Shown: in pieces, positions 796 through 9,213 of the stretch
Layout of the letters: each line of letters begins with the position of its first letter
Position numbering within the stretch: position 1 is the stretch's first letter
Source: Bdellovibrionota bacterium FG-2
GTDB lineage: Bacteria > Bdellovibrionota > UBA1018
Length of the DNA: 34,352 bases
Direction: 5' to 3'
NCBI GenBank assembly: GCA_051382305.1
Contig: JBBCAV010000370.1
Span: 1-34,352, forward strand
Notes under the pieces: generated by a model
What the model was told of the DNA's origin: nothing
What the model saw: the letters and a program-made list of their open reading frames with translations, nothing else
Databases searched by the model: none
Position numbers and translations under genes: made by a program

Positions 796-1206
796 CTACC
801 TCCCACGCTTCCGATCCCCCGTCGGCACTTTGCTCGGACTCCCTGCATGCCTTGCCGCCCCCTGTGGCACAAAATTCACCAGTACCGCGTGCACTGCTTG
901 GAGGCGTGAATCGTCGAGTTGCCGGATGATGCTTAAGCACTCGTCCCTGACCCGGATAGGTGGATCCGTTCGGTCCAGGAGTTCAAAGTAGTCGTCGTAG
1001 GTGTAGCCGTAGGCCGCAATAAGTGTCTCAATCCGCTTGCGGGAGAGGTCCATTCTGCCGTGCTCGATGTGTGCAATGGCGGAGCCGGTGATGTTAACTT
1101 TCGCCGCTGCTTGATTGAGCGATAGGCCCTTTTCAATGCGCATGTGGCGTAGGATGATTGCTTCTTTCGAGATTCGCTTTTCGTTGCTTCTTTTCGTATT
1201 ACTCAT
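796..1206 (-). CDS. XRE/Cro-C1-family helix-turn-helix transcriptional regulator
   Basis: LRHMRIEKGLSLNQAAAKVNITGSAIAHIEHG is an HTH_3 pattern; start moved to ATG 1206 (MSNTKR), which has GGAGG upstream. Confidence 0.85.
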   Translation of the reverse strand: MSNTKRSNEKRISKEAIILRHMRIEKGLSLNQAAAKVNITGSAIAHIEHGRMDLSRKRIETLIAAYGYTYDDYFELLDRTDPPIRVRDECLSIIRQLDDSRLQAVHAVLVNFVPQGAARHAGSPSKVPTGDRKRGR

Positions 1207-1416
1207 AGGTTTTGTCCTCCTTGGTGCGGACGCAGGAGCCCGCACTGTGTTTTGCTTCTCTTTTGGAAAAAGCCGCTGGCTTTCCCGTCAGATGAGAGGG
1301 GTCGGAGTTCGGAGTGACTAAGTAGGTAGACGGCAGTGCTCACCCAAACGGGAAAGTGCTGTCATTTCCACAAACTCAGTTTGTAGATTTTGAGACCACG
1401 GAACTTAAATCGGAGA

Positions 1417-1547
1417 TTTTGGCCTCAGACCAAAATCAGACCAAAACGGGTAAGGCGCTGTAAGAAGCGGTAAGTCTCTGTAAGGGGTTCTTACAGTCAA
1501 AATCGCTAACTGATTGTTCTTTCTTCGTTTTGTTATCAAAGAGTTAG
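1417..1547. repeat. att-arm-like array: arm-type repeats, phased RDF/Xis-like repeats, IHF site
   Basis: TCAGACCAAAA x2 (1425-1446) plus inverted partial TTTTGGCCT (1417-1425); GTAAG at 1450, 1460, 1470, 1480 and inverted CTTAC at 1490; TATCAAAGAGTTA (1534-1546) matches WATCAANNNNTTR. Confidence 0.65.
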
Positions 1548-1578
1548 ACGTCGAAGGTGTGGGGAGGTGCCCTAAAAA

Positions 1579-1679
1579 TGGGGTGACCATAGGGATCTGC
1601 TCCCGTGCAACCTCACGCTACCTTCGCATTGACGATTTCAGCACCGCATAAATACACATCCCCTCGTGTTTACGGTCAC
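1579..1679 (-). ncRNA. Non-canonical tRNA-like RNA (candidate), 101 nt, ends in CCA
   Basis: 9-bp terminal stem GTGACCGTA/TATGGTCAC plus C-CCA; D-like arm ACAC-GAGGGGAT-GTGT; T-like arm GGG-AGCAGAT-CCC; long variable-like arm TGCGA/TTGCA. Confidence 0.5.
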
Positions 1680-1713: not shown

Positions 1714-1749
1714 GGTCGGAGTCCGGTTTTTCTTCACCGAACCCCGACC
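1714..1749 (-). other. 14-bp hairpin immediately 3' of tRNA-fMet (processing or termination element)
   Basis: GGTCGGGGTTCGGT / ACCGGACTCCGACC pairs fully on the minus strand with two G-U pairs; no clear U-tract. Confidence 0.5.
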
Positions 1750-1756
1750 TAAATTT

Positions 1757-1833
<77 letters not shown>

Positions 1834-1854: not shown

Positions 1855-3153
1855 TTAGTCTCGCGTGCGCTTTTTCGTCAACCCAAAAGATGGCTTGCGC
1901 GCGGATTTCCGGTCGTCTGAGCCAAAGCGAGGTTTCTCACCTTCGCTGCGGCTCTTAAATCCTGTACTGGGTTTAGCGTCATAGCGGCCGTACTCTGACT
2001 TTCCAAAGCCGCTTTCACTTCGCTCGCTCCTGGGCTTTGATTTCCCAAAAGGTTTGGGTCCGAGCGGTCGCGCAGGTGCTCCTGCGGGGGCACCAAATGA
2101 CTTGCGCGGACCGCGCTCGCTGCGCTCAGCGCGTCCCTCACTACGGAACCCACCGCGCTCAATCCGAGGTCCACGCGGCGCTCTTCCAAAACCGCCTTCA
2201 CTGTCTTGGCCTTCTTCGTGCTCTTCGCGTGGGCCTCTGGCGCCGCCTCGAGCGGTCACTGAATTCGTGTCACCCTTGAGACGAATCACAACCGAGGAGC
2301 CGGTGCGCGGACCGTAACCCTTGCGTCCTCCGCGTTGAGATCTTCGGGGTCCATTGAACATTTTGACTTCGATCTTCTCTTTGTCTTTCTCAAGTTCCTT
2401 GTCCTCATCCAAACGCTTCAAACCCAGCTCGGGATGAGTGATGAGCACTTCGACTTGCGAAGACGTGAGTTGGCGCAAGCCCCCCGCAGCCAGCATGCCA
2501 TCTCTTGAATAGAGGGTAATTTGCCCAATCGCTTTGCGGGTAATTCGCTCCACTAAGAAACCTTTGTCTTCAAAAAAAGTCTTAATATCAATCAGGCCGG
2601 GATCGGTGAAGACGACTTCAATACGCGCTTTTGCCTGAAGCTCTCCAATGAGGCGGACGCGAAAAGGCTCGACGTGCTTGCGACCGGATTGAGTTCCTGC
2701 GCGAAGTCTTTCCAAGTCATCCGAGGTGGGATGGCCTTTGACTTTGACTTCATAAACACGTGCGACCTTTGGGGCGCGCTGTAGGCGCTCGGCAAAATCC
2801 CCATCGTTGGTTAAAAGAATCAAACCATCGGAATTAAAATCTAAGCGGCCGACAGGGAACACACGCTCGTTCACATGTTTAAGAAAATCCTTAATCGTGG
2901 TGCGTCCGTCAGGATCGGCGAGCGAGGAGATCACGCCTTTGGGTTTGTGAAATGCGTAGTAGACGCGGTTTTCAATTTTAAGAAGGAGCTTGCCCTTCAC
3001 CTTGATAGCATCGGTTGCCATGTCGGCTTTGTCGCCCAGTTTGGCAACTTTGCCGTTGATCGTGACGAGTCCTTCGGTAATGAGTTCTTCAGCTTTGCGG
3101 CGAGAGGAAATTCCCGCCCGGGCTAGGATTTTTTGTACGCGTTCAGATGCCAT
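1855..3153 (-). CDS. rluB: 23S rRNA pseudouridine synthase (RluB/RsuA family) with S4 domain and long basic C-terminal tail
   Basis: ERVQKILARAGISSRRKAEELI S4 domain; PVGRLDFNSDGLILLTNDG catalytic motif; follows scpB; start reassigned to MASERV at 3153. Confidence 0.9.
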   Translation of the reverse strand: MASERVQKILARAGISSRRKAEELITEGLVTINGKVAKLGDKADMATDAIKVKGKLLLKIENRVYYAFHKPKGVISSLADPDGRTTIKDFLKHVNERVFPVGRLDFNSDGLILLTNDGDFAERLQRAPKVARVYEVKVKGHPTSDDLERLRAGTQSGRKHVEPFRVRLIGELQAKARIEVVFTDPGLIDIKTFFEDKGFLVERITRKAIGQITLYSRDGMLAAGGLRQLTSSQVEVLITHPELGLKRLDEDKELEKDKEKIEVKMFNGPRRSQRGGRKGYGPRTGSSVVIRLKGDTNSVTARGGARGPREEHEEGQDSEGGFGRAPRGPRIERGGFRSEGRAERSERGPRKSFGAPAGAPARPLGPKPFGKSKPRSERSESGFGKSEYGRYDAKPSTGFKSRSEGEKPRFGSDDRKSARKPSFGLTKKRTRD

Positions 3154-4387
3154 TTTGCATTGCGACTTGCGCCGCCTCTTCGCCCGCCAGGTGGATGATT
3201 CCAAGGGCCTCGTCTTTTGCGAGCTGCTCCAGGCGCTTTTCTTCGGCTCGTTGCTCATCGAGTGAACGAGTCGAAGTGGGAATGGCGTTGACCTTCTCAC
3301 GAATTTCTTTAAGGATTCTTTCATCCTCACGAGGATCATAGGAGATCGCGTCGGTGTCGGTCTTCATTTTGCCTACCATTTCGCGCATCTTCTTAACTGC
3401 GGGGTCTTCGGTTTCGGGGTTACGTGACTCAGAAGAGGGAATCATTTGCTCCAACTCATGCAGCGGCGGAAGCGCCGTGAGGTCTGCAAGTCCAAAGACG
3501 TCCGTGAAGGTTTCCGTCGTGACATAAAGGATAGGGCGCCCCGGAAGATCCGAGCGGCCAGAGATAGCAATGAGTTTGCGATCCAAAAGCACACGCATGA
3601 AGTAGGACGAATCCACTCCTCTGACTTTATCGATCTCTTCTTTTAGGACGGGCTGGCGATAGGCAATGATAGCCAAGGACTCCATCGCGCCGCGGGAGAG
3701 GCGAGCCGTTTGAATTTTCGAAAGTTTTTGTGCGATGGCCGAACGTCCGGGCTTGGTGCGAAACTGATAGCCGCCAGAAACGTTGACGATTTCGATTCCG
3801 TGGGCAAGCTCTTCATATTTTTTGCACAATCCCTCAATGGCCTCCGTGCAAGTGTCTTCAGCGAAATCCACACCGGTTGAAGAACTCAGCGCTTCGCGAA
3901 TCTTCACCATCGACACCGGACGATCCGACATGAACAGCAACGCTTCGACATAGGACTGGACTTCGGCGATGTCGGAGGTGGTCAAAATGATCGCAGGAGG
4001 CTGAACTTCGGCGTCCATTGCGGCTTGGATTTCAATTTCTTCTTGTAAGGATTTAGCCAGTAATTGGTCTTCTGCGATCTCTTGGGCGAGGCGGGTGGCC
4101 ACTTCTTCAGGCGTTTCGCCGGTGAGGCTGCCGGGTTCTCCGTTTGCTTCTTCTTGGGTTTCTCCTTGGGTGTTTTCTAGGATCTGATTCTTGGTGGAGA
4201 GCGCCACGGCGTCGGCCACGCGCTCAAGAACACTTTCGTCGTCCAGTGCAAGTTCCTCAGTGCTGGCCTGAGCAGCGAGAATTCCGGCGATATCCAGATG
4301 AAACGGATCTGCCACAAACGCGAATTCTTGCTCGGGCTCCTGCATCACGCCATGGGTTTCCAGGTTTTCGGTTCTATTGTCTGTCAT
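3143..4387 (-). CDS. scpB: SMC-Scp complex subunit ScpB with acidic N-terminal extension
   Basis: VEALLF, GGYQFRT, LSRGAMESLAIIAYRQP, IDKVRGV, GRPILYVTT...FGL..L..LP motifs. Confidence 0.95.
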   Translation of the reverse strand: MTDNRTENLETHGVMQEPEQEFAFVADPFHLDIAGILAAQASTEELALDDESVLERVADAVALSTKNQILENTQGETQEEANGEPGSLTGETPEEVATRLAQEIAEDQLLAKSLQEEIEIQAAMDAEVQPPAIILTTSDIAEVQSYVEALLFMSDRPVSMVKIREALSSSTGVDFAEDTCTEAIEGLCKKYEELAHGIEIVNVSGGYQFRTKPGRSAIAQKLSKIQTARLSRGAMESLAIIAYRQPVLKEEIDKVRGVDSSYFMRVLLDRKLIAISGRSDLPGRPILYVTTETFTDVFGLADLTALPPLHELEQMIPSSESRNPETEDPAVKKMREMVGKMKTDTDAISYDPREDERILKEIREKVNAIPTSTRSLDEQRAEEKRLEQLAKDEALGIIHLAGEEAAQVAMQNGI

Positions 4388-8100: not shown

Positions 8101-8409
8101 GCCGAAAGAAATACTATAGCGGATGGCTCCACGGCGGAGCTCATGGCTGACCTCAATCCAGAGGGGAGTGATATTGATTATGGTGATTATAATCCGACTC
8201 TAGTCCGAGCTGGAAACGATGTGTTCTTTAATGCCTATGATGATTCGAGACTCGCTAAGCTTTATAAGTTCGACGGGGTGTCCACGACTCAAGTCAGTAA
8301 CCTGAACAATGGACGTTCCGATTATGTGTGGGATCTCGTAGCTCTTGGGAGTACCGTTCTTTTCATGACAGGCAACGCGACGGGTGATTCTTCGCTTTAC
8401 GGGTATTGA
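8101..8409 (+). pseudogene. C-terminal remnant of an ELWxxDGT-type beta-propeller repeat protein
   Basis: DGSTAELMADLNP...VFFNAYD....KLYKFDG...QVSNLN...VLFM repeat units; similarity extends upstream of Met 8143; no signal peptide. Confidence 0.55.
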
Positions 8410-8532
8410 AAATCGCCCGCTCGGATCGTCAACTCCCTGACACCTCTCTCAGTCTTTCCCGCTAGTTTTCCGGCGACGTCCGAGGTAAATTTGTAGAGTC
8501 ACTTAAGTATTTATGATGAGGAGATCGCGGCC

Positions 8533-9114
8533 ATGAAAAAAATAACGACAATCCCACTGCTCTTGATGGCCTTTTGTTTCGTAAACTCCTCGAGCCACGC
8601 CGCTGAACTCACTGTCTTGGGGGGGATTAGCCGTTCCACGCCGGAGTTCGTTCCCGCATCCTTAACGTTCAAAGGTCGAAACTCCTATGGGGGGGGCGCA
8701 CTTTTGGGAATTCGGTTCAAACGGTTTTTTGGACTTGAAGTGGGGGGGCTCTACGTCAATCGCAAATACGGGGATTCTGCGGGTGACATCTGCTTTAACA
8801 CTCTTCAGTTACCTGCCTTGCTTCGTTTTCGGCTCCTGCCGATGCTCTCGTTTGGAGTGGGCGGTTATTATACGATGGGAATCGGAAACGTGACTTTCGG
8901 AACAGCCACGAGCACCTTCGCGGACGCCGCTCTTAAGAAGTCGGACTATGGTGTAGTCGGGGACGCGCGACTGAGGCTTCCCTTGGTTCCGACCTTGGGG
9001 TTCATTGTTGATTTTCGCTACCTGTATGGCCTAGGCGACTACAGCACCCTCAGTGCGAAGAATCTTTATTTGACTGATGTCCAGCTTTTTGCAGGACTTC
9101 AGTTCGGGCTGTAA
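8533..9114 (+). CDS. Outer-membrane beta-barrel protein (PorT/OmpA-like)
   Basis: Signal peptide ending SHA-A; alternating strands (GLEVGGLYVNR, LQLPALLRF, DFRYLYGL); C-terminal QLFAGLQFGL; GAGGAG RBS. Confidence 0.85.
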   Translation: MKKITTIPLLLMAFCFVNSSSHAAELTVLGGISRSTPEFVPASLTFKGRNSYGGGALLGIRFKRFFGLEVGGLYVNRKYGDSAGDICFNTLQLPALLRFRLLPMLSFGVGGYYTMGIGNVTFGTATSTFADAALKKSDYGVVGDARLRLPLVPTLGFIVDFRYLYGLGDYSTLSAKNLYLTDVQLFAGLQFGL

Positions 9115-9213
9115 GCCCTCCCCGAGGGAAGGTGAGTGTTCCAATAGAATTGGAACACTATCTTTTGCAAGGCTGTTGTCATATTGCGGCAGTCTTTGTA
9201 CGTTCAAAGTCCA

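Follow-up and report, generated by a model that had tools for sequence, protein, structure and literature searches.

The window, as we use the term here, is the whole of a 34,352-nucleotide stretch of Bdellovibrionota bacterium FG-2 (GenBank assembly GCA_051382305.1, contig JBBCAV010000370.1), whose genome is represented by a bin of 433 contigs that is 85% complete with 4.4% contamination. Near one end of the window a tRNA-fMet gene lies downstream of a series of chromosomal genes, encoding an RluB-like pseudouridine synthase, ScpB, ScpA and TrpRS. It is followed by a hairpin, a 101-nt stretch, a segment that we call arm X, a gene for an XRE-type helix-turn-helix (HTH) regulator and, at the end of the contig, a multi-copy repeat (Table 1). 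The original prediction held the 101-nt stretch, hereafter the candidate, to be a non-canonical tRNA-like gene that had become the target of integration, and placed it 77 nt beyond tRNA-fMet, a distance that is confirmed by the positions at which ARAGORN and Rfam both find that tRNA.

Table 1. Features of the tRNA-fMet locus, the candidate and the adjoining element, with the integrase gene of contig C340. Positions are those of the window unless a contig is named.
Feature	Position	Strand	Evidence and remarks
Multi-copy IS-like repeat at contig end	5..229	.	10 other contigs end in copies of 94-100% identity (blastn)
XRE-type HTH gene, first gene of the element	796..1206	-	Pfam HTH_3 1e-08, HTH_31 1.3e-08
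Left arm X of the integrative element	1207..1578	-	1486-1578 matches C78 downstream of tRNA-His, 1 mismatch
Att core GTCACCCCA	1579..1587	-	tRNA-His positions 68-72, C73 and CCA; shared block begins two bases earlier, at 1589
101-nt candidate	1579-1679	-	Direct reading; starts 77 nt past tRNA-fMet
Host-side arm of the junction (GTGACCGTA ... GATCCCTATG)	1588..1679	-	5' 92 nt of the candidate; orphan
14-bp hairpin directly 3' of tRNA-fMet	1714..1749	-	-27.1 kcal/mol, z = -5.16, 0/200 shuffles as good
tRNA-fMet (CAT), genuine initiator tRNA, host side	1757..1833	-	ARAGORN; Rfam RF00005, 64.1 bits
RluB-like pseudouridine synthase gene	1855-3339		Upstream of tRNA-fMet, as in related genomes
Tyrosine integrase, 464 aa	C340 3722-5116		Pfam Phage_integrase 7.3e-13; stop codon 118 nt before GTCACCCCA

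On the host side, the order of the RluB-like gene and tRNA-fMet recurs in four genomes of the family, and in these same four neither a tRNA-His gene nor anything resembling the candidate follows the tRNA. The hairpin behind tRNA-fMet has no U tract, and four relatives carry a hairpin with a U tract at the equivalent place; a promoter and terminator scan of positions 1200-2000 found neither and did not call the hairpin a terminator. An old junction may have cost the native terminator its tail. A 3' fragment of tRNA-fMet acting as an att repeat was sought and none was found. In the sister genome G001 the contig carrying the RluB-like gene ends inside that gene and no tRNA-fMet locus was matched, hence no empty site was read there. 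In a further genome, G002, the sequence about 66 nt beyond tRNA-fMet (~3868-3887) repeats the final ~20 nt of that gene in inverted orientation, possibly reflecting a further integration scar or a long hairpin.

A cloverleaf can be drawn in the candidate

Read on the minus strand, the candidate contains each of the stems listed for it in the original prediction, and every pair was borne out. The acceptor-like stem joins GTGACCGTA (1679-1671) to TATGGTCAC (1591-1583) in 9 bp, with one G-U pair, and is followed by a C and then by a CCA that ends at 1579. Within it lie a D-like stem (ACAC/GTGT, 4 bp) closing the 8-nt, GG-containing loop GAGGGGAT; six unpaired bases; an anticodon-like arm of 5 bp, two of them G-U (GCGGT/ATCGT), with the 6-nt loop GCTGAA; a variable-like arm of 5 bp (TGCGA/TTGCA) with a 13-nt loop and one unpaired C after it; and a 3-bp T-like arm (GGG/CCC) with the loop AGCAGAT. 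The nine acceptor-like pairs directly abut the GGG/CCC stem, giving the 12-bp branch of a 9/3 geometry. The T-like loop lacks equivalents of T54-T55 and A58, GTG occurs at no possible anticodon position, and the base at -1 is A, so that the G-1:C73 pair, which HisRS requires, is absent.

No detector recognized this structure as a tRNA. ARAGORN did not call the candidate at its default settings, and with introns allowed and thresholds relaxed to 90, 80, 70 and 60% it found nothing on the candidate's strand. Rfam gave no match to it at gathering scores and none at E<=10 in a 501-nt slice, an outcome that the original prediction, which expected a weak canonical match or none, had anticipated. We built a covariance model from eight tRNA-His genes of the same bacterial order; with filters off, it scored tRNA-fMet in the window at 42.7 bits and random matches at 7-9 bits, and the candidate was absent from the results. 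When applied to a 181-nt slice its best score was 5.2 bits (1579-1645), which is below the random matches of the window and drew only on the T-like arm and the 3' end. The 5' 90 nt align to tRNA-His no better than do shuffled sequences (global p = 0.69, local p = 0.98). At minimum free energy the 101 nt fold into a rod and not a cloverleaf (-34.7 kcal/mol, z = -1.93), and this z score does not discriminate, since the real tRNA-His and tRNA-fMet give -2.37 and -1.66. The candidate thus falls outside RF00005 and the canonical cloverleaf; it has the C73 and CCA of a tRNA-His as part of a shared att core, described below, and does not otherwise qualify as one; and its D, anticodon and variable arms are not those of an allo-tRNA.

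The original prediction had suggested collecting homologues of the candidate from related genomes, but neither 60 relatives nor 400 genomes of the phylum yielded one. The DNA search of the 60 relatives returned only two short matches, one of them a real tRNA-His, and that of the 400 genomes only matches of 24-36 nt at chance level (E 5e-4 to 9e-3). The rest of the bin holds no second copy of the 5' 90 nt, and exact-pattern scans of metagenome and genome contig collections, from which records of the window's own genome were possibly excluded, gave 0 matches. The 5' part of the candidate is therefore an orphan sequence, with no homologue in about 460 related genomes. Among RNA data, run X23 matches only tRNA-fMet, and this from other organisms. 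The claim of a tRNA-like gene, or of an allo-tRNA, has the ARAGORN and Rfam results, the tRNA-His model, the loop features and the lack of homologues all against it.

The 3' end of the candidate belongs to a tRNA-His attachment core

A second match to the candidate within the same genome explains its 3' end. Window positions 1560-1589 occur also on contig C78, which carries an intact, canonical tRNA-His (GTG anticodon, G-1, C73, CCA), the only tRNA-His among the 39 tRNAs that ARAGORN finds in the bin. By blastn, positions 1-104 of C78 equal 1486-1589 of the window with one mismatch in 104; the shared block consists of the last 11 nt of tRNA-His and 93 nt of its downstream flank, and runs up to the end of C78. 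Beyond 1589, that is at tRNA-His position 65/66, identity falls sharply, to about 50% from 99%. So abrupt a step indicates a recombination breakpoint and not uniform decay. The original prediction had taken the discriminator C as a feature of tRNA-His, and this is literally what it is, the C73/CCA end of the candidate being the tRNA-His att core. Its link to integration was also well founded, in that the 3' end of the candidate is this core and is followed by the left end of an element specific to tRNA-His.

Arm X contains tandem TTTTGGTCTGA repeats at 1425-1446 and two repeats of a GTCTAC..ACTGAGT type. In alignment, these motifs, which are putative arm-type protein-binding sites, are kept after tRNA-His in the genomes G030, G004 and G001. 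Homologues of the HTH gene occupy the same place after tRNA-His in the same three genomes. In the window this gene likely starts at the ATG at 1206, behind GGAGG, and the list of open reading frames begins it at a GTG at 1245. The element is truncated 570 nt past the HTH gene by the terminal repeat, which includes the tail of an open reading frame (2-211) with a weak HRDC match and is likely to be an insertion-sequence end. No direct repeat was found within the window. In a lake-water metagenome run (X2), positions 1291-1583 are present at 97% identity and the chromosomal flank of the window is not, as expected for a mobile element.

In the sister genome G001, tRNA-His together with 60 nt of upstream sequence shares 97% identity with C78, and a homologue of the HTH gene (65% DNA identity) lies some 400 nt downstream, so that tRNA-His there occupies the place that the candidate has in the window. 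All four of the other left junctions that were read (C78, G001, G030 and G004) have a canonical tRNA-His, followed by the repeat arm and an XRE-type HTH gene. Upstream of tRNA-His, C78 carries a gene of the RhuM family at a distance of about 450 nt (623-1327 on the plus strand, Pfam 4.3e-68); at its place G001 has a different open reading frame, and further upstream the two sequences are again similar.

The integrase and a tRNA-His element family

The opposite end of such an element was found on contig C340, where a tyrosine integrase gene and the 118 nt behind it are followed by GTCACCCCA, the last nine bases of tRNA-His, and then by the flank that follows tRNA-His in G001. The core and the next 82 nt are 99% identical to the sister genome (blastn of the G001 contig against the bin). 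Judged by its sequence, the C340 junction is a classical attR, composed of a displaced tRNA fragment and its former flank, and it places the new element in tandem, in front of an older left end of the G001 type. The bin therefore contains both a regenerated tRNA-His (C78) and a displaced identical fragment (C340), as well as an integrase gene beside an att site, whose connection to the arm in the window would run through C78. For the copy in the window itself, no second junction of integrase arm and core exists in the assembly, and no tRNA is detectable on the host side.

Of 116 genomes of the order, 64 contain relatives of the integrase at E<=1e-20. Among the nine closest loci (48-100% identity), GTCACCCCA stands just 3' of the integrase gene in eight, five of which have C(C/G)TAAA immediately in front of it; with the window's own genome left out, the count is seven of eight. 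Counts of the core alone are uninformative, as the 9-mer occurs 29 times in the bin against 34 for a control pattern; one of these, on contig C141, falls within a response-regulator gene. A single contig carries both tRNA-His and the attR core in G030, at a separation of 9.8 kb, and likewise in G004, at about 52 kb. For four related integrases a search up to 20 kb upstream gave no tRNA-His, the elements being longer or the contigs ending. These features define a family of elements targeting tRNA-His in this order, with the 9-bp core GTCACCCCA, the integrase on the right, and an XRE regulator and a repeat arm on the left.

Several further observations concern the contents of C340 and C102. As cargo beside the integrase, C340 carries two genes (209-2332 and 2378-3133), whose products are a 707-aa protein containing an ATPase domain of the histidine-kinase type and a 251-aa protein that matches PIN weakly; part of the former recurs at 90% identity on contig C102 (9527-11716). 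The same contig C102 encodes, at 8193-9158 on the minus strand, a 321-aa product that has an HNH endonuclease motif and weakly matches the histidyl-tRNA synthetase family, at E = 5.6e-4, below the cut-off. A second, different multi-copy repeat (C340 5321-5418), present in at least 15 contigs and mostly at or near their ends, is inserted 79 nt past the attR core, inside the arm of the older G001-type element.

Origin of the junction

The 101-nt stretch is probably an attL-type recombination junction and not a tRNA gene. What carries this reading was observed directly, namely the 104-nt block shared with C78, the attR and its integrase, and the conservation of both the core and the left arm. In the scheme that we propose, the integrase would recombine an attP, reading ...CGTAAA, then GTCACCCCA, then TTTTTAGGG..., with the nine bases that end the tRNA-His gene. 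One such element sits in tRNA-His of this genome, with its attL on C78 (tRNA-His followed by arm X) and its attR on C340. The window contains the same left end (core, arm X and HTH gene) fused not to tRNA-His but to the 92-nt orphan sequence past tRNA-fMet. Since the left end is the same, the 3' strand of the acceptor-like stem, the discriminator C and the CCA of the candidate are the tRNA-His att core. The host side would be a secondary attachment site, owing its use to the likeness between its last bases (TCCC-TATG) and the 3' strand of the tRNA-His T stem, which is what the integrase meets beside the core. The copy in the window presumably arose through the action of the integrase at this site, and the two junctions would represent either two copies in one genome or two subpopulations. 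The stretch itself would then have no RNA function.

Several points sit uneasily with this reading. The matching attR of the window copy was not found, the assembly having only one integrase arm of this type, and no empty site was read in G001. The resemblance of the 5' 9-mer to the 5' end of tRNA-His and the depths in run X1, both given below, also count against it. The closing stem and the T-arm likeness are more than a random secondary site needs; within the host-side arm, the first nine bases can pair with the 3' end, and GGG/CCC forms a hairpin like that of a T arm. Selection of a secondary site explains the similarity that adjoins the core but not the distant 5' complement, and no use by an integrase of such a distant 5' strand is known. 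The excess over chance could be measured. A closing stem of 9 bp with at most one G-U pair and a loop of 60-130 nt occurs at 81 of 40000 random positions of the genome, and at 41 of 40000 when the 3' strand is fixed, for a P of about 0.001-0.002. In the 23 nt left of the shared block, 13 bases match the variable region and T arm of tRNA-His (P = 0.0014 against 2.4 million genomic 23-mers). It is because these matches are unlikely to arise by chance that we retain a decayed tRNA-His, a form of the decayed pseudogene that the original prediction named as its main alternative, as an unlikely origin, and a functional RNA as a very improbable one.

A decayed tRNA-His would be the relic of a second, redundant gene of this kind that followed tRNA-fMet and served as attB, its body having decayed and gained about 25 nt and its 3' end having stayed intact through the rewriting of the core at each integration. 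The closing stem and the T-arm identity are what such a relic might leave, and the 5' 9-mer of the candidate agrees with the 5' end of tRNA-His at seven of nine positions in its own genome, both differences keeping the pairing, and at eight of nine in G030; the sharp change of identity at 65/66 likewise fits a rewritten core. The remainder of the sequence does not bear this origin out. The 5' 90 nt show no better alignment to tRNA-His than shuffles, the tRNA-His model scores below random matches, and ARAGORN is silent on the strand even at its most permissive setting. None of the four family genomes that were read has a tRNA-His after tRNA-fMet. Moreover, a decaying pseudogene is not expected to keep a perfect acceptor stem, still less to lengthen it.

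The join could also be an artefact, either of assembly, in which tRNA-fMet and arm X were fused as a chimera at a repeat, or of the population, in which a rare rearranged subpopulation was sampled. The fragmentation, incompleteness and contamination of the bin would allow it, as would the facts that arm X is common to two paths and that a single attR was assembled. Sequencing run X1, which contains 97% of the sampled words and which, as it may be the source sample of the window, is not independent support, allowed the two paths to be traced. Its contig graph forks exactly at 1589. The branch of the candidate is an unbranched 255-nt contig (1560-1814) leading from arm X via the candidate and the spacer into tRNA-fMet at a depth of 10.8, and that of tRNA-His is a 914-nt contig entering from the T arm at a depth of 6.4. 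Both junctions therefore exist in the reads. The arm X contig, common to both, has a depth of 8.4, so that the depths are not additive (10.8 + 6.4), which favours an artefact. Against it, the unbranched contig reaches a depth no lower than that of the adjacent RluB contig (7.1), no alternative continuation leaves the 5' part of the candidate in this run, and the two copies of arm X, in the window and on C78, differ by a SNP, so that two real haplotypes exist. The arm X contig of run X1 also departs from the window sequence at 1150 (T>C). We consider an artefact quite improbable.

A functional tRNA-like RNA, with a 9 + 3 bp minihelix and a C73-CCA end, would be co-transcribed with tRNA-fMet, as the original prediction suggested, and cut out by RNase P and RNase Z. 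Its stems do exist, with an end-to-end pairing that is unlikely by chance; no U-tract terminator separates it from tRNA-fMet; its fold z score lies within the range of the two real tRNAs; and 9/3 tRNAs and 8/4 tRNA-His species have been described (PMC5389517). All of this is outweighed by the silence of ARAGORN, Rfam and the covariance model, by a 6-nt anticodon-like loop without a GUG anticodon, by the T loop and the A at -1 noted above, by a minimum free energy fold other than the cloverleaf, and by the want of any homologue in the 60 and 400 related genomes or the two collections. The 3' end, furthermore, is accounted for by the att core. No RNA contig matches the candidate, which is weak evidence because the RNA runs do not contain this organism. 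It is hardly credible that the stretch is a selected decoy tRNA, expressed as a 9/3 minihelix whose His-type C73-CCA mimics a tRNA end for RNase P or CCA enzymes and which, as a landing site for elements specific to tRNA-His, diverts mobile DNA from that essential gene. Were a tRNA-like reading true, the locus would represent a rare tRNA-like RNA serving as an alternative attachment site.

If the stretch is an attL-type junction, as we prefer, its significance is of another kind. The junction of a tRNA-specific element with a site that is not a tRNA can pass for an exotic tRNA, as the att core already supplies a CCA end, a discriminator base and one half of an acceptor stem. Such mimicry calls for caution in searches for non-canonical tRNAs in metagenome bins.

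Comparison with known systems

Allo-tRNAs have an 8/4 or 9/3 acceptor/T geometry, a tRNA-Sec-like D arm with a long stem and a tetraloop, a long anticodon stem with a 7-nt loop, and a long variable arm (PMC5389517). The candidate is like them in that it can be drawn with an acceptor branch of 9 + 3 bp and a long extra arm. It is unlike them in having no long D stem or tetraloop, no long anticodon stem, a 6-nt anticodon loop, no T-loop consensus and no relatives in the genomes searched, and in owing its 3' strand to the tRNA-His att core.

The tRNA pseudogenes and displaced fragments found at the ends of islands offer another parallel, as the candidate ends in an exact 3' fragment of tRNA-His and bears a faint likeness to that tRNA at its 5' end and T arm. 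Such fragments, however, normally lie at attR, after the integrase, whereas the present one lies at an attL-type junction, after host DNA. A classification of integration sublocations is reportedly due to Williams. Secondary (pseudo) att sites of site-specific integrases are known, for example in phage lambda. Here too a non-cognate host site shares bases with the primary site beside the crossover (TCCC..T.G before GTCACCCCA), but the candidate has in addition, at a distance, nine bases complementary to the core region, a feature that recognition by an integrase would not require, and the partner junction was not found.

The system as a whole resembles the islands that tyrosine integrases insert into tRNA genes. 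The Islander approach maps islands from a regenerated target and a displaced 3' fragment (PMC4383910). The left end in the window differs from such islands by joining sequence that no tool calls a tRNA, and the block of identity within the tRNA is only 9-11 nt. The likenesses are an integrase at one end; a short direct repeat equal to the 3' end of the tRNA; tRNA-His regenerated at attL (C78) with the fragment and old flank at attR (C340); a tandem with an older, related element; and conserved arm repeats. The system is an ordinary family of tyrosine-integrase islands that targets the 3' end of a tRNA gene.
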